Positions 10,271-23,552 of a stretch of DNA of 64,000 nucleotides are shown piece by piece. Within the stretch, counting starts at the first letter, position 1. Every line of letters begins with the position of its first letter. The position numbers and the translations under genes are program-made. This DNA is from a bacterium CG10_46_32 (GTDB lineage Bacteria; Patescibacteriota; Patescibacteriia; UBA2169): positions 1,170 to 65,169 of the forward strand of contig MOEI01000012.1 of the NCBI GenBank assembly GCA_001889965.1, given 5' to 3'. Under the pieces are notes generated by a model, which worked only from the letters and a program-made list of their open reading frames with translations, made no database searches and was not told where the DNA came from.

Positions 10271-10302
10271 AAAAAAGCCCTTCGCCAAAAACTGACGAAG
10301 GG
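10271..10302 (-). terminator. Intrinsic terminator (minus strand)
   Basis: gcccttcg...cgaaggg hairpin; the A-run on plus corresponds to a U-run on the minus-strand transcript. Confidence 0.4.
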
Positions 10303-10439
10303 ATGAACAGCAATAGTTCAGTACTTTCTACTGCTGATTATAAGAAAACCAATTACCTCCTCTCTATGGAGAATCGGCACAATACTGCTTGACCACGCAC
10401 CTTCCAGAGTCATAGTATCGTAAGCTCTTTTTTCAGCTT

Positions 10440-10667
10440 TGCGGTATAAATAGCTGGACCAGACATTTCTGTCTCCTTTTGCTTAAGGTGAATTACCGCA
10501 GTTGATACTTCACAAACCTCCCCTTCTCCCCCAATCTGCTCTATCTTGCCTTCTTGTTCCAATTCATCTAAATACCTTGTAGCACTCGCGTCCGAAACAT
10601 TGAGTAGATTTTCTATGTCGTTGTTTGTGGCCTCGGTATTTTCTTTGAGATATACATGGTTGGCATA
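10440..10667 (-). pseudogene. Disrupted paralogue of the small wHTH ORF
   Basis: DNA and protein similarity to 8934-9080 (…ATRYLDELEQEGK…GEGEVCEVS…). A 29-nt insertion after the ATGCCA start shifts the frame into an early stop. Confidence 0.4.
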
Positions 10668-10678
10668 TTTTTATGTTA

Positions 10679-11179
10679 TTAATCTTTTAAATACATCTTT
10701 TCCGAGAGCTCTTTTATATAATCCGCACGCATTACTTCCGATTTCCATGTTTCGGGTATACCATTGTACCCATAGTAACACCCGGATAATGCTCCGGCAA
10801 CTGCCGCAAACGTATCTGTATCCCCGCCCAATGTAATAACTTTTTTTATGCTGTCATAAAAAGTATCAGTAATCATTAAAGACCACAACGCGATCCGTAA
10901 TATATCAATGCAATACCCGGACACCGGAATACTATCCTTATTCAGCTTACTGTAATCTTCCACTAACACTCCCGCAACCTGTTCCGGCATATCTGAATAT
11001 ATACTAGACTTGTGGCCCGTGTTTAAGATGATAGCTAAGAGTTCCGCGTTGCGCAAAACATCCGGCCCCTCGCGCATGAGCCGCTCGCGCGGCCAGTCTT
11101 CCGTGGTCGGCTTGGATATGTCGTACCCTTTTTGTTGTGTTCCCTCCATATATGTTAATCGTACCTGCTGCATCAACAA
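10679..11179 (-). CDS. Chimeric ORF: RadC-like N-terminal segment joined to an ADP-ribosylglycohydrolase C-terminal segment
   Basis: N-terminus PRERLMREGPDVLRNAELLAIILNTGHK matches the RadC/UPF0758 HhH motif. C-terminus LGGDTDTFAAVAGALSGCYYGYNGIPETW matches the ARH (DraG-like) C-terminal signature. 166 aa is too short for either family. Confidence 0.5.
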   Translation of the reverse strand: MLMQQVRLTYMEGTQQKGYDISKPTTEDWPRERLMREGPDVLRNAELLAIILNTGHKSSIYSDMPEQVAGVLVEDYSKLNKDSIPVSGYCIDILRIALWSLMITDTFYDSIKKVITLGGDTDTFAAVAGALSGCYYGYNGIPETWKSEVMRADYIKELSEKMYLKD

Positions 11180-13629: not shown

Positions 13630-13905
13630 TTAAAGCTTTACATCAATCGCGCCCTCTGCGCCTTCCCCTATCTTGGCATCGCGAAACTCATAGTCTGCAT
13701 CGCGGAGCAAGGCGCGCACCGCATCACCTAGAACCGGGCCTTCTTTAGAATGGATACCGCGGCCCACGATAATGCGGACTAGGTTGTATCCCGCGTGTTC
13801 GCTCTCGCTTAAAAAAGCACGCACAGCAGCGCGCGCTTGATGTTGAGTGTGCTGATGCAGATCCAAAGTTGCCTGCGGTGTTTGGGCGTATTTGTTCATA
13901 CCCAA
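13630..13905 (-). CDS. Smr-domain protein
   Basis: TLDLHQHTQHQARAAVRAFL...RIIVGRGIHS Smr (small MutS-related) domain. Its first ~70 nt recur at 14690-14790 and 16195-16270. Confidence 0.7.
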   Translation of the reverse strand: MGMNKYAQTPQATLDLHQHTQHQARAAVRAFLSESEHAGYNLVRIIVGRGIHSKEGPVLGDAVRALLRDADYEFRDAKIGEGAEGAIDVKL

Positions 13906-14009
13906 ACTGTACGCTTCTCATTACTAAAAATCAACACAAGTCAGCCGCTATTCCAAATTAACCCATAAACTTAGAATAGTATTCCACTTTATGCAAAGTT
14001 AGGACATAA

Positions 14010-14040
14010 ATCTTGAATATAAAAACAACCGGATTAACCA
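14010..14040. terminator. Weak bidirectional hairpin terminator
   Basis: aaaaacaaccgg-atta-accagctgttttt imperfect stem with flanking A-run and T-run. Confidence 0.3.
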
Positions 14041-14082
14041 GCTGTTTTTATACTTCTTTAAAACGTACAATAAAGACGAAAT

Positions 14083-14346
14083 TTAGCACGCGGCAAAATC
14101 GTGCAAACGCCATGTGCTCCCTTTTTTCCTTGCTTCTACAACCCTGCCTCTTTGTGGATTAATATTTTCGGCAAGAGCGCGGCTTTCCTTATTGAAAGCT
14201 TCGTCGCCTTCTACGGTAATAATAACCCATCCCTTATTTGGAATTCTATTCATCAAATCAGGCTTCCTAATAATATATCTATCAAACTCATTAGACAGTT
14301 TGATATTCTTTTTTATAAATGTTTTAGACATACTGTTACGTTGCAT
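14083..14346 (-). CDS. Hypothetical protein (87 aa)
   Basis: ORF overlapping the upstream ORF by 11 nt; no recognised motif. Confidence 0.4.
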   Translation of the reverse strand: MQRNSMSKTFIKKNIKLSNEFDRYIIRKPDLMNRIPNKGWVIITVEGDEAFNKESRALAENINPQRGRVVEARKKGSTWRLHDFAAC

Positions 14347-14641
14347 ATAAATAATTTTCTTTTATTTTTTCGTAGCGCTGTGCAATATCACTCTTCATAC
14401 TGTCGAAAGCTGATTGACTATCCATATATATAGGAAATTTATATTCTTTCCCATTTTTATGATACACATGCTTATGCGGGGTTCCATACCAATTGTCTAC
14501 CCCAAGCACTGTCCTCCATCTGGATTGTATGAGGGCACGATACCGGATCGAAAATTGAACCAACTTGCCTCCCTTGGTCTCAAAGCTTATATGTAAAACA
14601 TCTATATCAGTCAAAGGATACTTATACTCTTTCTTAGGCAT
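14336..14641 (-). CDS. Hypothetical protein (101 aa)
   Basis: ORF immediately downstream of a truncated Smr N-terminal fragment; no recognised motif. Confidence 0.4.
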   Translation of the reverse strand: MPKKEYKYPLTDIDVLHISFETKGGKLVQFSIRYRALIQSRWRTVLGVDNWYGTPHKHVYHKNGKEYKFPIYMDSQSAFDSMKSDIAQRYEKIKENYLYAT

Positions 14642-14642
14642 C

Positions 14643-14762
14643 TTACTTTATTATCTATAGTATACAACAAAAATCTATATCATACAAATACGCGTTCGCT
14701 CCCACTCAAAAACGCGCGCACTGCGGCGCGCGCTTGATGTTGAGTGTGTTGGTGCAGATCCA
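14643..14762 (-). pseudogene. Truncated copy of the Smr gene 5' end (about 40 codons)
   Basis: Minus strand reads MYAQQVQTPQATLDLHQHTQHQARAAVRAFLSGSERVFV*, a near copy of the N-terminus of 13630-13905; DNA about 90% identical over 70 nt. Confidence 0.45.
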
Positions 14763-14908
14763 ATGTTGCCTGCGGTGTTTGCACTTGTTGGGCATACATT
14801 AGATGATGAGGAGAGCGGGTGAATTAAAACTTTGTGAAACCACTAAACACGGAATAACTCTCAATAAAGTACAATAAACAAATACCGGTGTTGCGTCAAC
14901 CATCTTCT

Positions 14909-15616
14909 TTATAAAAAACCGAACACTAGCATCATAATATTCAGAGCCAACAACACAAACACGATAACCCACATTGCTGCCAGAAAAAATTTATTCCAAA
15001 CCACTTTTTTTCTACGTAAAAACAAAAATATCAAATACCAAATTTCAAAAATAGATAGAGCGACAATACTGAATGCTGTTGAAAATTTTGCGATATAAAA
15101 CGAAGCGTCGTCGAACAACGCCATCATATAGCCCAGTCTTCGCGGAAACGCCAGACCGTCAAAAAGCATAATTACCGCAAATGATATAAGCAGTATCAAG
15201 GTAAGCCTCCGCCCGGAGTGACGATGTAGTTTCTGTATTCCGTTTTTAATAATTTCGCTTTTTCTTTTTTTCCTAAATTTTCTAATGACAATCGTTACAA
15301 CACAAGACAGCAGATACAAGTAGATAATCTCTATCGCCGCCATAATCCCAATCATCACACTCATCGGCCAGTCTAAATCGCCAAATACCATTTGCGGCAT
15401 GAGATAAATGAAATATGACGGAATAACTAATACCAGTCCTAGTACGCCAGCAATAAACGACGCAAAAGATACAGTGTCACAACCCAAGCTCATTATACAG
15501 CCGAACATAACCCCCATGATCAAAAAAATCGTTAGCGCGACCAAAACAACCAAAACTGCCATGACAATCAACTTCATCCGGGAAGGTTTAATAAATTTTA
15601 GTATTTTATCTTTCAT
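14909..15616 (-). CDS. Polytopic membrane protein (235 aa), last gene of the cassette array
   Basis: About 7 predicted hydrophobic helices; no recognised motif. Confidence 0.55.
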   Translation of the reverse strand: MKDKILKFIKPSRMKLIVMAVLVVLVALTIFLIMGVMFGCIMSLGCDTVSFASFIAGVLGLVLVIPSYFIYLMPQMVFGDLDWPMSVMIGIMAAIEIIYLYLLSCVVTIVIRKFRKKRKSEIIKNGIQKLHRHSGRRLTLILLISFAVIMLFDGLAFPRRLGYMMALFDDASFYIAKFSTAFSIVALSIFEIWYLIFLFLRRKKVVWNKFFLAAMWVIVFVLLALNIMMLVFGFL

Positions 15617-15672
15617 TTTGAGTTAATGGAAATTCTGCGCCGCTTTTTAAAGCATCTTTTACATGTCTTGGT

Positions 15673-15987
15673 CTACAGCCCTGTATAGTTGCTCCAAAGA
15701 GAGAAAACTAGCAATGAATATAAAGAGTAAATTACTAATCCCAATCCTACAAGTATGAATATAGTTGATAATATCCTATTATGCTTAACTTTATATCGAA
15801 AACCTTGAATACCGCCTACAAATAAATAAACTCCAACCAAAATAGACAGAACAACAATAACATTAATAACAACTCCATTATCAGATACAAAATTTCTATC
15901 CTGAAAAATAAAAACAATCAATCGCGGTACAATAACAAACAAAAACAGTACTAATAAAATAGTATTTCTTTTAAATAAATTTCTCAT
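15673..15987 (-). CDS. Small 3-TM membrane protein, cassette paralogue (ends ...SNYTGL)
   Basis: 104 aa; paralogous to 16302-16592 and 17237-17533 in size, hydropathy and C-terminal x(F/Y)TG(L/F) motif. Confidence 0.55.
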   Translation of the reverse strand: MRNLFKRNTILLVLFLFVIVPRLIVFIFQDRNFVSDNGVVINVIVVLSILVGVYLFVGGIQGFRYKVKHNRILSTIFILVGLGLVIYSLYSLLVFSLWSNYTGL

Positions 15988-16117
15988 ATGGTTCTATTTT
16001 TTAATAAACAAAACTTCTTAAAATATTCCAATCCAATGTAGAGTCGGGTAATCTGCCATAAACTTTGATAAAGCTGATTATACCCCGCTGTTCTGCGGAC
16101 ATATCTCTCACAGACGG

Positions 16118-16206
16118 CCGCAAGCCATATGCAATCATCATAACAGATTGATCGTTTTCTGCACCTGTGCTCTTTGCCTTTTGCTCGGCCTGCGCACTGC
16201 GGCGCG
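16118..16206. repeat. ~90-bp near-identical direct repeat, copy 1 (copy 2 at 16726-16810)
   Basis: Shared block gccgcaagccatatgcaatcatcataacagattgatcgttttctgcacctgtgctctttgccttttgctcggcctgcgcactgcg. Confidence 0.8.
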
Positions 16207-16270
16207 CGCTTGGTGTTGAGTGTGTTGATGCAGATCCAATGTTGCCTGCGGAGTTTGGGCGTATTTGTTG
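16195..16270 (-). repeat. Third copy of the Smr 5' gene fragment, embedded in the cassette array
   Basis: Minus strand encodes ...NKYAQTPQATLDLHQHTQHQARAAV with no start codon; DNA matches 13835-13905 and 14700-14790. Confidence 0.5.
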
Positions 16271-16301
16271 AGTATCAGGAAAGCTGGTCAAAAGATGAGG
16301 A

Positions 16302-16592
16302 TTAAAAACCCGTAAAGCCACTAAAAGCGAAGTAACCTAAAATAAAATAAATGAGAATGAGTGCAGGGGGAATGATAAATACTATTGAAACTTTTTGAGC
16401 ACTGTCTTTTAGTCGTATAGAAAATTTAACATTCATATAAACAAGATATACTGCCCCTAACAGCATAAAATAAATCAATGAATTTACATGTTTATCTGGC
16501 ATGCCTGGCTGATAAAAATTCTCATAAATAAACCAAGGTGACACAAGAAATATTATTATTAAAATAATATTTTTATAAACTAGTTTTTTCAT
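16302..16592 (-). CDS. Small 3-TM membrane protein, cassette paralogue (ends ...SGFTGF)
   Basis: 96 aa; paralogue of 15673-15987 and 17237-17533. Confidence 0.55.
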   Translation of the reverse strand: MKKLVYKNIILIIIFLVSPWFIYENFYQPGMPDKHVNSLIYFMLLGAVYLVYMNVKFSIRLKDSAQKVSIVFIIPPALILIYFILGYFAFSGFTGF

Positions 16593-16610
16593 ATTTTTTA
16601 TTATATTCTT

Positions 16611-17063
16611 TTAATAAACAAAACTTCTTAAAATATTCCAATCGAATGTAAAGCTTGGTAATCTACCATAGGTTCTAACGAAATTCACGAGTCCTTTTTG
16701 CTCCAACCCCATATCTCGCTTTAGCGGCCGCAAGCCATATGCAATCATCATAACAGATTGATCGTTTTCTGCACCTGTGCTCTTTGCCTTTTGCTCGGCC
16801 TGCGCACTGCGCTGACTTGGTAGATTGTTGGTGGAAATTTGTATCACATCACTCCAATCAACAGTGCTTGTAGGTAATCTGCCGAACGCCTCCTTAAATG
16901 AGTACAATACTCCAGCGCGCTCGCCTTGTCCTAAAGCCTGCGTACTCTTGGTGCCATAGGCAATAAACGCTATTGCTCCCCGATCAAACGAGAGCCCTTT
17001 ACCATAACGCTCTGCTACTGCTTGCTCTAAAGCGCTGTCCCTCGCTCTATCTAAATACGCCAT
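16611..17063 (-). CDS. C-terminal-module protein (units A+B, 150 aa, no signal peptide)
   Basis: Contains both repeat units found at the C-terminus of the 1237-aa protein (…IAYGTKSTQALGQGERAGVLYSFKEAFGRLPTSTVDW… and …IAYGLRPLKRDMGLEQKGLVNFVRTYGRLPSFTFDWNILRSFVY). Confidence 0.55.
   Translation of the reverse strand: MAYLDRARDSALEQAVAERYGKGLSFDRGAIAFIAYGTKSTQALGQGERAGVLYSFKEAFGRLPTSTVDWSDVIQISTNNLPSQRSAQAEQKAKSTGAENDQSVMMIAYGLRPLKRDMGLEQKGLVNFVRTYGRLPSFTFDWNILRSFVY
16726..16810. repeat. ~90-bp direct repeat, copy 2
   Basis: See 16118-16206. Confidence 0.8.
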
Positions 17064-17159
17064 GAATGTTTCGATATCTGCATTGGCAAGCGCGGATAAA
17101 ATTTCATCTTCTCTATGGATGCTTGCTGAATACGGGTTAAACGACGTAAATGGAATTAG

Positions 17160-17215
17160 AAATCAGTAAAACCACTAAAAGCGAAGTATCCTAAAATAAA
17201 ATAAATGAGAATTAA
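17160..17215 (-). pseudogene. Remnant 3' end of a small-membrane-protein gene (…LILIYFILGYFAFSGFTDF)
   Basis: DNA nearly identical to the 3' end of 16302-16592 (16310-16365) but with no upstream ORF; a recombination scar. Confidence 0.45.
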
Positions 17216-17236
17216 CACAGTAGGAATAATGTTGAA

Positions 17237-17533
17237 TTAGAGACCAGTAAAATTACTCAAAGCATAAATCATAACTAAAGCGTAAAGTGCGTACAACACC
17301 AACCCAAGACCCATAATAAAAAAAATAATTCGGCTCGTATTGCTCTCGAAATCAAAACGCTTTGCATTGATACGTACTAAATAAATTCCCGCCACCAGAA
17401 CAATAATAATCAAACCATATATAATTTTACTCCTAAGTTGAAAATCAAATATTCCAAATATGTACTTGTTAGCTAGATAAAGTACCACAACGAATAAGAC
17501 CGCGATTAAATTTTTATGTATCTTTTTTATCAT
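17237..17533 (-). CDS. Small 3-TM membrane protein, cassette paralogue (ends ...SNFTGL), cognate to the large protein
   Basis: 98 aa; starts 13 nt after the stop of the 1237-aa gene. Confidence 0.6.
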   Translation of the reverse strand: MIKKIHKNLIAVLFVVVLYLANKYIFGIFDFQLRSKIIYGLIIIVLVAGIYLVRINAKRFDFESNTSRIIFFIMGLGLVLYALYALVMIYALSNFTGL

Positions 17534-17545
17534 AATCCAACTTAC

Positions 17546-20500
17546 TTAATAAACAAAACTTCTTAAAATATTCCAATCCAACGTAGAACATGGGAGCTTG
17601 CCGTAGATCTCAATAAATCGCTCTATCCCTTGTCGCTCGGCATCTAGATCCCGCTTATCCGGCCGCAGACCGTAGGCAACCGTTATAATAGATTTCTCAT
17701 CATTCATACCCACATCTTTTGCTTTTCGCTCGGCGGCACCGCTTCGCTGAATTGGCGCTTGGTTGGTTGCAATTCGAATCACGTCATTCCAGTCTTCGCT
17801 TGTTGTGGGGAGGATGCCAAATGCCGCTTTATAGGAATACAGTACTCCGGCGCGCTCTCCGGTTCCAAGTTTTTGCGTGCTCTTGGTGCCATATGTGATA
17901 AAGTTGATGCCTGCCTGGTTCAAGCGAAGTGATCGGCCGTATTTTTGAGCTGTTTCCTGCTCCGAAAAAAAATTCCGTTCCAAACTAAGATAATCCAATA
18001 ACGTTTCAATATCACCATCGTGGAGAGCAGCCAGAATATCATCTTGCGTATACTGCTCGCTCTGTGCACGCTCTATTTTTACGCCAAGCACTTCCGGAGT
18101 TGAGGCAGATCCTGAATCAAGTCCAGGATGACGATTTGGCTCTTGAGTATTCTCATCTTGCGATTTGCCGGCAGGCGCGGCAGGTGTCGGCACAATAATG
18201 ACAGCCGGAGAATAAACATTGATCGTTTGAGTGTGGTAATCTTCCAGATTCCCTACTCTGTCCTTTGACCGGTACAGTACTGTATTATCGCCTATAGTGG
18301 TAAGTATAACCTGATTTTCGTAAGCGTGCCACGTGCTCCCGTTATCAAGACTATATTCTGTTTTTAAAACTCCAGAATTATCATCACTTGCCAAAAGCTC
18401 AAACGCGGCGGAAGACGCTCCACCAGAAACACTGATAGTAGTGGTTGGTTTTGTTATGTCCCCAGCCTGTGTACTGTTGAGGACCGCTGCCGCAGTAACC
18501 GGCGCAAAACTTCCCGTACCATTCGTATCCACCTGTAACGTGGTTCCACTAACGTCCGATGACAACGCTACCTGTGCACTGGTTGATTGATTCACTGGAA
18601 CATCAGTGTAATACGCAGTTTCGATGACCTGGTTGTTCACAACCTTGGAAACATACAGGCTGAATGTACCACTTCCGGTGCCGTCATGTTGAATATTGTA
18701 AGATGTAGAATCCGTGTTCGGTATAAAGATAAATTTATTATCTCCAATCTGCTCATAGGTTGCGCCTGGGATATTCAATTCAATATCTCCATTTTCGTCT
18801 GGACCGACATGGTTGCCGTTTGCATCATACACGTTTAAATTGACCGGACTGTGCACAGATACGACCTGACCGTTGAATACACACTGGCTGATGTCTTGAG
18901 AAATATCCGGCAATGACGAAGTGTCTAGCGTGCCGGTGATGATCTCTGTAATTAACTGCTTAATACTTGACTGGCTCGGCATGGTTGCGTGTTCAACGCC
19001 AATTGCATAAAATGTTTTGTTTGCCTGTATATCAATAGCAGTCGCGCTATCCAACGGAACTGTTCCGTCGCCTGCTACAAACTCAACACCATATTCTACT
19101 TTAACAAGTTCCTGGTTCCGGATGATAATTTTGCCGAGAGTTGCAGTGTCGCACCCCACAATATTATAGGCATCCATTCCAGTAGTATTAAAATCGTCCA
19201 AAGCATTGCTATGAAGATCATCTGCGCTCTGAACAAGAGAAAAGTTTAAGCCCTGGTTGACCAGATAATTATTTACCTCGTCATAAGTGTGGCTTTTTGG
19301 AATAGCTAGATTATAAAAGTATTTTCCGATTTCAGATATATATAGACTACTAGGCAACAACTGGTAAACTGACGCCATATTCTTTGTGATGCTTTTTATT
19401 TCAAGTTGGTTCATTATTAGACCCATACCCAAATTATCACCATACAGTAATACCTTTGCTGATTTAGGTGACCCTAAATGTGGCGTACCGACAAAGATCA
19501 TTTTATTAACTCTCGACGAAGAATTATCAAGAATATATTGTTTCAAAACTAGACCACCCATACTATGGGCGACAATATCGACTTTCTGACTACCCGTCTG
19601 TTGTATAACACTATCAATCTTATCGACTAAAAATTGACTTATTGATTGAATATTCAAACGCCAATCATAAGGGAATAAAAATAAATCAGTATTCTCCTGA
19701 TACCCAGCAGACTCAAAATCATTAATCAAACCATCCAAGTAATCAAAAATAGTACCACCAAAAATTGATGCTTTCCTAAAAATATCATCAACATAAACAG
19801 AATTATCGCTTGGAGACCCATCTTCATTCATAGACAAAGGATCCATATAGGATTCGGCGACCGAAATTGCCGTCCAAAGAAAATTTGGCCATAAAGTAAT
19901 ATCTCCTAAACCACCAAAAACTTCCTGCTTCAAAATCGTCCCGGCTATCCCCGGCACCAGAATAACAGGTACATTACGCACCTCAAACATTAACTCCCCA
20001 GACGATGGCAAGCGGACAGCAGACAACCCATCCGAAGTCTCAAAGTGGTAGGAATAGGAACCCTTAGGGAACACGCCGGCATTTGGAGTAAACTCAAACA
20101 GGCCATTGGACGACGTTGCCATAGGATACGCGCTATTGCCAACCACCAAGCGAACATACTGCGCAGAATCGCCATCAGAATCAGTAAATAAAATGCGGAA
20201 CACCGGAACATCCTGCCCTACAAAACTAATATCAGGCGATGCGCCATCAGCAGTATACCCATCCAAATCTTGGTACGATAAAACCGGCGCTTGGTTGGCG
20301 GGATCTTGGTTTGTCCAGGGGCTATAGGTTACATTCCCCACAATCACATCCCCGGTTCCAGAAGGATTGGACGCAATGGTCGGGCCGGAAGAACTGCCCC
20401 ACCAATTGTTCGTCATATCCAACGGGTCGTCGCCGGAGTAGAAAACCGCACTTTCTGAATTATCGTAAAAACTGGAACCTACAATAGACACGTGCGCTGG

Positions 20501-21259
20501 CACTACCGCGCCGCCGACGGCCAGCATGCCAATTTTATTGCCATAGAACAGCGTATCAACTACCGTCGTAAATGCGTCATTCTGTAATCGAAAGCCGGTT
20601 TGGGCGTTATCCCGAACCACAGAGTCCGCGATTGAAATAGTACTGCCAGTTGTGATGTTTTTGATACCCTCCCACACACTCTGTTCAATCACTGAGTGGT
20701 TCAGCGTAACTTCGCCGCCGGTTACCAACAGCATGGGCCAATTTGACTTGCCTCCATACCGGATAATGACATACTCTGCGTCCAACCTACCACTGACTGA
20801 CATCCGAAACCAATCCCCAGGAGAAGGCAGGGTCTCATTGCCGTCACTATTAGTATCTCCGCCGTACTCGTCGTCTTTTATGGAAGTGAACACCACTGGA
20901 GCAGATTCAATTCCGGCAATAATGAGCGTGCCGTCAATAAAAATCTGGAACTGCAATCCGGTCGGCATCTTGATAACTACCCCGGGTTCAATAGTAACCG
21001 TTGTATTAGCTGCCACTTTGATGGTTGTTGTCTGCGCGATATAGGGGCTGTTTGCGGCAGTGAGCGTGTATCCGTCTGGAAACGTATTATTCGGAAACGC
21101 AAGCGTGGTAGCTGCATGCGCGGGCGCAACCCACGCCAACGCGCACACAAAAAACACAGCAACAAAAATAATACTGTGCTGGATTGGTTTGATGATGTCT
21201 ATACTATGTCCCTCCATAATATAGTTACTGTACGCCCATGCTCCTAAAAAATCAAACAA
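17546..21259 (-). CDS. Large secreted multidomain protein: signal peptide, right-handed parallel beta-helix, LipA-type alpha/beta-hydrolase lipase, Ig-like region, tandem C-terminal repeat module
   Basis: Signal peptide with AHA-ATT cleavage site; PbH1-type repeats ending in the DMTNNWWG motif. PVILVPGIAGT ... VDIVAHSMGGLVLKQYI closely matches Bacillus LipA (AHSMGG nucleophile elbow). The C-terminal ~140 aa are two-plus-one ~50-aa repeats ending LDWNILRSFVY. Confidence 0.8.
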   Translation of the reverse strand: MFDFLGAWAYSNYIMEGHSIDIIKPIQHSIIFVAVFFVCALAWVAPAHAATTLAFPNNTFPDGYTLTAANSPYIAQTTTIKVAANTTVTIEPGVVIKMPTGLQFQIFIDGTLIIAGIESAPVVFTSIKDDEYGGDTNSDGNETLPSPGDWFRMSVSGRLDAEYVIIRYGGKSNWPMLLVTGGEVTLNHSVIEQSVWEGIKNITTGSTISIADSVVRDNAQTGFRLQNDAFTTVVDTLFYGNKIGMLAVGGAVVPAHVSIVGSSFYDNSESAVFYSGDDPLDMTNNWWGSSSGPTIASNPSGTGDVIVGNVTYSPWTNQDPANQAPVLSYQDLDGYTADGASPDISFVGQDVPVFRILFTDSDGDSAQYVRLVVGNSAYPMATSSNGLFEFTPNAGVFPKGSYSYHFETSDGLSAVRLPSSGELMFEVRNVPVILVPGIAGTILKQEVFGGLGDITLWPNFLWTAISVAESYMDPLSMNEDGSPSDNSVYVDDIFRKASIFGGTIFDYLDGLINDFESAGYQENTDLFLFPYDWRLNIQSISQFLVDKIDSVIQQTGSQKVDIVAHSMGGLVLKQYILDNSSSRVNKMIFVGTPHLGSPKSAKVLLYGDNLGMGLIMNQLEIKSITKNMASVYQLLPSSLYISEIGKYFYNLAIPKSHTYDEVNNYLVNQGLNFSLVQSADDLHSNALDDFNTTGMDAYNIVGCDTATLGKIIIRNQELVKVEYGVEFVAGDGTVPLDSATAIDIQANKTFYAIGVEHATMPSQSSIKQLITEIITGTLDTSSLPDISQDISQCVFNGQVVSVHSPVNLNVYDANGNHVGPDENGDIELNIPGATYEQIGDNKFIFIPNTDSTSYNIQHDGTGSGTFSLYVSKVVNNQVIETAYYTDVPVNQSTSAQVALSSDVSGTTLQVDTNGTGSFAPVTAAAVLNSTQAGDITKPTTTISVSGGASSAAFELLASDDNSGVLKTEYSLDNGSTWHAYENQVILTTIGDNTVLYRSKDRVGNLEDYHTQTINVYSPAVIIVPTPAAPAGKSQDENTQEPNRHPGLDSGSASTPEVLGVKIERAQSEQYTQDDILAALHDGDIETLLDYLSLERNFFSEQETAQKYGRSLRLNQAGINFITYGTKSTQKLGTGERAGVLYSYKAAFGILPTTSEDWNDVIRIATNQAPIQRSGAAERKAKDVGMNDEKSIITVAYGLRPDKRDLDAERQGIERFIEIYGKLPCSTLDWNILRSFVY

Positions 21260-23476: not shown

Positions 23477-23552
23477 GGGCCCGTAGCTCAGGGGTTAGAG
23501 CACCACTCTTATAAGGTGGCCGTCGGTGGTTCGATTCCACCCGGGCCTACCA
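23477..23552 (+). tRNA. tRNA-Ile (anticodon UAU), 76 nt with encoded CCA
   Basis: Cloverleaf: acceptor gggcccg/cgggcct, D-arm gctc/gagc, anticodon stem ccact/ggtgg with loop cttataa (U33, UAU, A37), T-arm ggtgg-ttcgatt-ccacc. Confidence 0.7.

Follow-up and report, generated by a model that had tools for sequence, protein, structure and literature searches.

A secreted-lipase gene followed by truncated copies of its own 3′ end in bacterium CG10_46_32

Why should the gene of a giant secreted lipase have behind it, in the same orientation, two truncated copies of its own 3′ end, each with an intact gene for a small membrane protein after it? The question is posed by a 64,000-nt stretch of contig MOEI01000012.1 (positions 1,170–65,169; referred to here as the window, to which all coordinates apply) from bacterium CG10_46_32, a metagenome-assembled genome of the Patescibacteria. 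Seven open reading frames (ORFs) had been described here in a first-pass annotation made from the letters alone. All seven are present at the positions given below, every one on the minus strand. The giant ORF (1237 aa; 21259–17546) is followed after 12 nt by a 98-aa protein with three transmembrane helices (3-TM), 3TM-1, which ends SNFTGL (17237–17533). Below these are a 150-aa ORF (17063–16611) with the intact paralogue 3TM-2 (96 aa, ending SGFTGF; 16302–16592), a chimeric 106-aa ORF (16321–16001) with the intact paralogue 3TM-3 (104 aa, ending SNYTGL; 15673–15987), and a polytopic membrane protein of 235 aa (14909–15616).

On balance, and with a little over even confidence, we read the locus as a surface-retained lipase operon with displacement scars. 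It would be the 3′ end of an operon conserved in one clade of Patescibacteria, comprising a secreted β-helix/LCAT-type lipase, a 3-TM protein and often a polytopic membrane protein. The lipase, secreted through the Sec pathway, ends in a two-repeat module of ~150 residues that would keep the enzyme on the producer’s envelope, and the small membrane protein would be the docking or guarding partner of the lipase at the membrane. The orphan modules probably arose by additive (displacement-type) recombination, by tandem duplication or illegitimate joins at microhomology, after which the upstream copy would have been replaced by alleles from related strains, each remnant carrying along an intact and very different small membrane-protein gene. 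The array would thus be a stack of alternative 3-TM genes, each behind the same 33–36 nt, beside a variable region rich in defence genes. Crossovers within that tract would repeatedly swap the 3-TM gene following the lipase and leave truncated modules as by-products. The array is best read as such a stack because its junctions carry scars, because module and 3-TM protein do not co-vary, and because those 33–36 nt are the sole long tract that the copies share.

Junctions and truncated copies within the array

Two independent assemblies of bacterium CG10_46_32, made from different samples with different assemblers, agree exactly on the array, which is therefore not an assembly artefact. A 72-kb contig from the European Nucleotide Archive (ENA) and a 23-kb contig from the Joint Genome Institute (JGI) match the window at 100% over their length, with 13.5 kb and 16.5 kb spanning the whole array. 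Mis-assembly of strain alleles into one contig, with spurious small ORFs, is scarcely credible, although related strains with other alleles do share the same aquifer samples (the Ga0210057 loci) and an inverted chimera does occur among the contigs (L096, 1 kb). Besides the agreement of the two assemblies, the junctions bear specific scars, comparable arrays exist in other genomes, and the 3-TM family is conserved in 30 loci. L096 itself (a 1,008-nt ENA contig) is probably a short-contig assembly artefact; its bases 1–673 correspond to window 17263–16591 and its bases 660–1008 to 17313–17661 in reverse, the two parts overlapping by 14 nt.

The 150-aa ORF holds both units of the module, A and B, without a signal peptide, and the 106-aa ORF holds unit B alone. 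The first of these copies, orphan A+B (16611–17120), is a 5′-truncated copy of the lipase 3′ end that extends beyond the called ORF, with homology to the resident module from ~15 codons before the ATG (EDEILSALANADIETF-MAYLD). It starts immediately past a 76-nt fragment (17155–17230) that is the 3′ terminus of a 3TM-2-like gene, 84% identical to 16301–16376 and translating to a peptide that ends IIPTVLILIYFILGYFAFSGFTDF before the stop codon.

The second copy, orphan B (16001–16201), has a different junction. The first 42 residues of the 106-aa ORF, earlier taken for junk sequence, derive from the 5′ end of the nearby Smr gene, a copy of which (16192–16269, 92% identical to 13820–13896) is read here out of frame and joined to unit B at a 10-nt microhomology, CGCAGTGCGC. 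Orphan B has an exact match of 87 nt with orphan A+B (16115–16201 and 16725–16811). Forming the downstream boundary of the rearranged stretch is the intact Smr-domain gene (PF01713; 13630–13905), the source of the duplicated 5′ fragments. Between it and the 235-aa gene is a further composite scar (14691–14871), consisting of a 3-TM 3′ fragment (14821–14871) and then a second Smr 5′ fragment (14691–14781) that is 88% identical to the intact gene; this appears to be the relic of an older 3TM–Smr junction, like the intact one in locus L010. The fragments at 17155–17230, 14821–14871 and 14691–14781 are absent from the first-pass annotation.

Judged by these junctions, the 150-aa and 106-aa ORFs are shown to be 5′-truncated, chimeric remnants of the lipase 3′ end and, as it appears, not genes in their own right. 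The 3-TM fragment, the Smr fusion and the microhomology at their 5′ ends speak against the proposal that they are retained cassettes.

Comparable pairs of an orphan C-terminus and a small TM gene lie downstream of the lipase in the window (two pairs) and in L002, L003, L033 and L035. The general layout, a full-length gene followed by truncated 3′ copies each with a small membrane-protein gene, is as first described and recurs in related genomes, but not as a set of designed orphan genes. A restriction–modification (R-M) system separates the resident and orphan pairs in L002, where it is of MvaI type, and in L003, where a 42-aa module remnant with a TM gene comes after it, and L033 has a 58-aa module remnant with a truncated 3-TM gene. 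The region behind the operon is variable, with R-M systems, a SNF2 helicase with a methyltransferase, toxin–antitoxin pairs and, in L008, a transposase-like ORF (judged by eye only). The same R-M system, orphan module and 106-aa TM gene occur in L001 and L002 in differing upstream contexts (HhH-GPD and thioredoxin genes in L001; a module with a 114-aa TM gene in L002), and the block may therefore be mobile.

Several observations weigh against reading the array as a stack left by displacement. Orphan A+B retains all 22 residues that are invariant in the family, and its ratio of non-synonymous to synonymous substitution (dN/dS) against relatives, 0.10–0.16, equals that of resident pairs (0.13–0.17), so that it was either recently orphaned or is still constrained. 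The intactness of 3TM-2 and 3TM-3 is not required if the array consists purely of scars, and the small-protein slot is occupied across loci by at least four sequence-unrelated TM families, a pattern more typical of immunity genes. Elsewhere the orphans fare differently; that of L002 appears relaxed (dN/dS 0.59), and the remnants in L003 and L033 are decaying.

The lipase and its C-terminal module

The giant protein is composed, in order, of a signal peptide, a β-helix, an LCAT/class-2-type lipase, an immunoglobulin (Ig)/OmpL47-type barrel (residues 949–1015) and the C-terminal module. Gene callers on the same contig begin it at Met15, giving 1223 aa, and the probable true start is the ATG at 21217. 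The signal peptide ends in AHA at residue 49, and the predicted right-handed β-helix is supported as a weak Beta_helix match (residues 180–285). Within the α/β-hydrolase region (residues ~430–761; 18977–19972), to which LCAT, Lipase_2 and PGAP1 all match, the best match is PF02450 LCAT (E 1.2e-24, residues 508–644). The catalytic residues are Ser566 (in AHSMGG), Asp731 (GDGTVP) and His757 (VEHATMP), which do not vary among the aligned homologues with coverage of these positions. These supply both the GxSxG nucleophile elbow and the triad Asp and His of LCAT/class-2 enzymes.

The resident module (residues ~1074–1237; 17549–18040) comprises lead-in helices, unit A, a linker and unit B. Units A and B are true internal repeats, as the first reading of the translation had suggested, with 36% identity over 42 aa (E 2e-8), and the AlphaFold2 (AF2) model of the module has nine helices (pLDDT 88). 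The near-identity of the termini in the three module ORFs is also confirmed; the last ten residues, DWNILRSFVY, are identical in the resident, 150-aa and 106-aa ORFs. Typical members of the wider family terminate in DWDIVRAIAYSGAxR, and the subfamily of the window, referred to here as short-tail, terminates in DWNILRSxVY, shorter by five residues.

This family is large. A profile built from seven close relatives matches at least 1,252 cluster representatives at E≤1e-3, 1,006 of them at E≤1e-10, in proteins of 99–3,508 aa, and among the matches listed the match ends at most 10 residues from the protein end in 148 of 150. Those proteins that carry a name are nearly all ‘hypothetical protein’ of Patescibacteria, Parcubacteria or Falkowbacteria. 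An N-terminal hydrophobic leader is present in 103 of the 130 module proteins that exceed 230 aa and start with Met, the N-terminal parts contain fn3, surface Ig-like, dockerin, cadherin, HYR, TIG, GDSL-lipase and similar extracellular domains, and the median isoelectric point (pI) of the module is 9.45.

The module had not been recognised as a described family, nor do our searches place it in one. Scans against Pfam, NCBIfam, PADLOC and PHROGs gave no match above threshold, and sequence and fold searches of the PDB gave none. Well-known anchoring domains were a possibility raised at the outset; the searches found no homology of the module to SLH, LysM, PG_binding_1, CW_7 or CWB2, and matches to PMBR are sub-threshold only. 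Literature searches returned no description of the domain. Relatives are absent from the viral contigs searched, so phage receptor-binding or lysin proteins lend no support. The module is thus an undescribed, lineage-wide, basic all-α C-terminal domain of extracellular proteins of the Candidate Phyla Radiation (CPR).

Owing to its position at the very end of proteins that bear a signal peptide and begin with extracellular domains of many kinds, to its charge and to its context, the module is likely to have a role in envelope retention. Its basic pI would be compatible with binding to peptidoglycan, a secondary wall polymer or the membrane. CPR bacteria live attached to other cells and are generally regarded as incapable of synthesising lipids themselves. 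A giant LCAT-type lipase, putatively held at the surface, is a plausible candidate for taking lipids from a host or for attacking it.

Some members depart from the usual architecture. P0020 (686 aa), a cohesin-domain protein, has seven matches to the module profile, and the 45–50-aa unit can therefore exceed its usual two copies. P0016 (681 aa), a DEAD-box helicase (DEAD and Helicase_C), ends in the extracellular-type module; it is an odd fusion, unless the gene call is chimeric. Standalone modules without a signal peptide also occur in the typical family, and two of the three looked up directly follow or overlap a same-strand gene. In L092 such an AYSGAxR module ORF (6001–6522) begins 8 nt past a Trypsin_2-type protease gene, and in L091 (6001–6585) it overlaps the preceding unannotated 286-aa ORF by 4 nt. 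They were considered as further orphan arrays and rejected as such, since their context resembles that of split genes; they look like split genes, or like a domain provided as a separate subunit.

The small membrane proteins and the unit of exchange

The three 3-TM paralogues are homologous, as had been noted, with 35–38% identity to 3TM-1 (27% between 3TM-2 and 3TM-1 in another comparison). The AF2 model consists of three long helices connected by loops of only ~5–15 residues, and the basic N-terminus and basic second loop suggest an orientation with the N-terminus inside and the C-terminus outside. Neither the 3-TM proteins nor the 235-aa protein gave anything above threshold in Pfam, NCBIfam, PADLOC or PHROGs. 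A holin assignment was considered for the 3-TM proteins and rejected, there being one weak PHROG holin match (E 0.002) for one of the three paralogues and no endolysin nearby. Homologues of the 235-aa protein come after the lipase operon in L012 (63% identity) and L026 (57%).

Genome and metagenome scans yielded a neighbourhood set of 88 loci. In ~40 of them, comprising every short-tail module with room downstream, the module is followed at −31 to +25 nt (97 nt in one case) by a multi-TM ORF of 94–146 aa; the pairing of module and small membrane protein described in the first-pass annotation thus holds in other genomes. No such small multi-TM neighbour accompanies ~45 typical AYSGAxR members. 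All short-tail modules reside on orthologues of the same lipase, so the pairing is a conserved lipase operon and not a property of the domain family; the small membrane partner is specific to the lipase family, from which the pairing is inseparable. In the other direction, all 30 matches to the 3-TM profile directly follow a module, and a reverse database search with the 3-TM protein found only 12 proteins. P0278 and P0275, the two with contigs looked up, directly follow the lipase gene or its module; also among the 12 are P0280, which is 3TM-3 on the 72-kb contig, and P0282, which is 99% identical to 3TM-1. The 3-TM proteins form deeply diverged types (12–67% identity) shuffled between lineages, and four further small TM families (106, 114, 122 and 145 aa) with no detectable relation to them occupy the same slot.

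The layout had been likened to that of polymorphic toxin loci, in which a variable C-terminus would diverge together with its cognate partner. Sliding identity against 13 homologues shows no drop at the module boundary, the module (41–65%) being equal to or above the body of the protein. The family of the module also spans at least 1,252 clusters, the majority of them lacking a membrane partner; the module is not a polymorphic cassette. Module and 3-TM distances are uncorrelated (Mantel r = −0.09, p = 0.86), against the supposed co-divergence of the pair. Orphan A+B is 71–72% identical to the resident modules of L009, L010 and L011 and 55–59% to the module of its own genome, but its 3-TM gene is only 16–24% identical to those of the same three loci. 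Similarity of the 3-TM proteins correlates instead with lipase residues 401–880 (r 0.35–0.52, p 0.001–0.02) and not with residues 881–1237, a correlation that derives largely from one deep split and that vertical descent explains too. Distance matrices give the C-terminal 350 aa a tree that differs both from that of residues 401–880 and from that of the 3-TM gene.

At the nucleotide level, the conserved 3′ end of the module, stop codon included (17546–17581), is identical over 33–36 nt to the ends of orphan A+B (16611–16643) and orphan B (16001–16036). The last 40–42 nt are 95–98% identical among copies that are otherwise ~68% identical, and exact matches of at least 14 nt between resident and orphans are confined to the last 33–36 nt plus one 14-mer. 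No tract other than this terminal one is long enough to allow the copies a homologous crossover. Phe in the RSFVY tail occurs in the three copies of this genome and nowhere else. Exchange, which the first-pass annotation had suspected, has accordingly left traces in this residue and in the separate tree of the C-terminal 350 aa, but what can be exchanged is the gene of the small membrane protein rather than the module. Across 23 genomes (L003–L029 and the window), synonymous conservation of the last ~10 module codons (GAT TGG AAT ATT TTA AGA ... TAT TAA) is well above that of its other codons. Codon bias could be the cause, or else a role of the nucleotides themselves, in crossover or in starting translation of the gene that follows.

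The genome-specific tail, with its high identity over 40–42 nt, could also suggest short-tract conversion within a programmed system, in which the orphan modules are a silent reservoir from which the expressed gene receives copies, as with pilS or vls, and docking specificity changes together with the cognate membrane receptor. The exchange of the C-terminal 350 aa between lineages and the lack of relaxed selection on orphan A+B agree with such cassette switching, which we nevertheless consider quite improbable. Upstream of the last 36 nt, resident and orphan share no exact match longer than the 14-mer, and a crossover importing an orphan module would have no substrate. Module and partner do not co-vary, orphan B is joined to out-of-frame Smr sequence, the orphans of L003 and L033 are decaying, and the arrangement is the same in two assemblies from different samples.

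A stronger competitor, possible but doubtful, treats the array as the product of sequential displacement in an effector/immunity system. The lipase would be a contact-dependent weapon or an attacker of host membranes, and the small protein would shield the membrane of the producer; incoming segments carrying a lipase 3′ end and an immunity gene would displace older ones, whose immunity genes are kept against kin and whose module remnants are by-products. Such a system would account for a slot that always holds a small polytopic membrane protein from one of at least four unrelated families, for the deep divergence and shuffling of the 3-TM types, for intact orphan 3-TM ORFs beside truncated modules, and for 3-TM similarity that tracks the lipase and mid region and not the adjacent 350 aa. 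The layout also parallels the immunity arrays of Vibrio cholerae and the CDI/Rhs orphans described below. Against it, the protein has no boundary between a conserved N-terminal and a variable C-terminal part, family scans detected no toxin domain or delivery apparatus, the correlation with residues 401–880 has the alternative explanation given above, and 3-TM loops of ~5–15 residues are too short to cover the active site of a lipase. The immunity proteins known for lipases are binders of the soluble or lipoprotein kind. Unlikely, and the boldest form of this idea, is that a phylum-wide surface-retention domain was joined in one clade to a contact-acting lipase with hypervariable protective small membrane proteins, forming the first effector/immunity displacement array of the CPR, with the last 36 nt as the site at which immunity genes are swapped.

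The stacked and shuffled small membrane genes reveal a component under diversifying pressure, and with them the choice between anchor and immunity becomes directly testable.

The surroundings of the array add the following. The G+C content is 0.34–0.40 across the array (14001–18000) and 0.32–0.38 at 9001–11000, against ~0.46 elsewhere in the window; both low stretches fit foreign or membrane-protein-rich DNA. A DUF7718/DUF5647 gene pair (101 and 87 aa, overlapping by 11 nt; 14083–14641, minus strand) separates the second Smr 5′ fragment from the intact Smr gene as though it had been inserted there, and may be a small addiction-type or defence-type pair. A promoter scan of the array gave no more promoter-like sites than shuffled sequence would, and terminator-like matches within it fall in coding sequence or in the Smr-derived repeat; on this weak evidence the array may be co-transcribed. 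Outside it, ARAGORN places a tRNA-Ile with anticodon TAT at 23477–23552 on the plus strand. Such a tRNA is uncommon in bacteria, in which AUA is usually read by a lysidine-modified CAT tRNA.

Comparison with known systems

The module resembles the envelope-retention domains (SLH, CWB2, LysM, PG_binding_1, Cpl-7/CW_7 and choline-binding repeats) in its tandem units of ~45–50 aa at the extreme C-terminus of Sec-exported proteins, in the great diversity of the catalytic or adhesive parts that precede it, in its basic pI and in its phylum-wide distribution. It differs from them in that one subfamily has a dedicated adjoining gene for a small membrane protein. A single unannotated C-terminal domain on more than 1,000 clusters provides a way to define the CPR surface proteome and a target for binding studies.

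An all-α C-terminal domain of ~150–200 aa followed by the gene of a ~100-aa three-helix membrane protein also recalls the pore-forming colicin and bacteriocin domains with their 3–4-TM immunity proteins. The module, unlike these, is hydrophilic, lacks a hydrophobic helical hairpin and has no fold match in the PDB, and most members of its family have no membrane-protein neighbour.

At the e14 prophage, a duplicated 3′ end of the target gene icd flanks the inserted DNA. Here, too, 3′-end copies bracket foreign cargo (the R-M systems in L002 and L003) and the expressed gene is left intact. In contrast to icd, the duplicated copies are diverged alleles and not identical repeats, no integrase or att-like site was seen, and the copies are joined at microhomology or illegitimately.

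Among published systems, the closest are the arrays of displaced effector 3′ ends and immunity genes in the type VI secretion system (T6SS) clusters of V. cholerae (PMC5361080) and the orphan C-terminus/immunity arrays of polymorphic toxin loci, CdiA-CT/CdiI of contact-dependent inhibition (CDI) and Rhs-CT/RhsI (PMC3150448). In CDI and Rhs the C-terminal domain is polymorphic and set off by a demarcation motif; that of the lipase is conserved, has no such motif, is common to more than 1,000 unrelated extracellular proteins without a partner, and does not co-vary with the partner that it has. Family and fold searches placed the module in no known toxin family or fold, and export is by a Sec signal peptide with no CDI, Rhs, T6SS or type VII secretion system parts. 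Of the proposed likeness to polymorphic toxin loci, then, the variable C-terminus and the toxin fold fall away, co-variation of the small gene is absent with the module and confounded by phylogeny with the lipase and mid region, and the anatomy of orphan pairs downstream of a full-length gene stands. That anatomy is shared: a full-length secreted gene is followed by same-strand, 5′-truncated copies of its 3′ end, each with a small gene, a short conserved sequence is usable as a crossover site, and the nearest relatives of the orphans are the resident copies of other strains.

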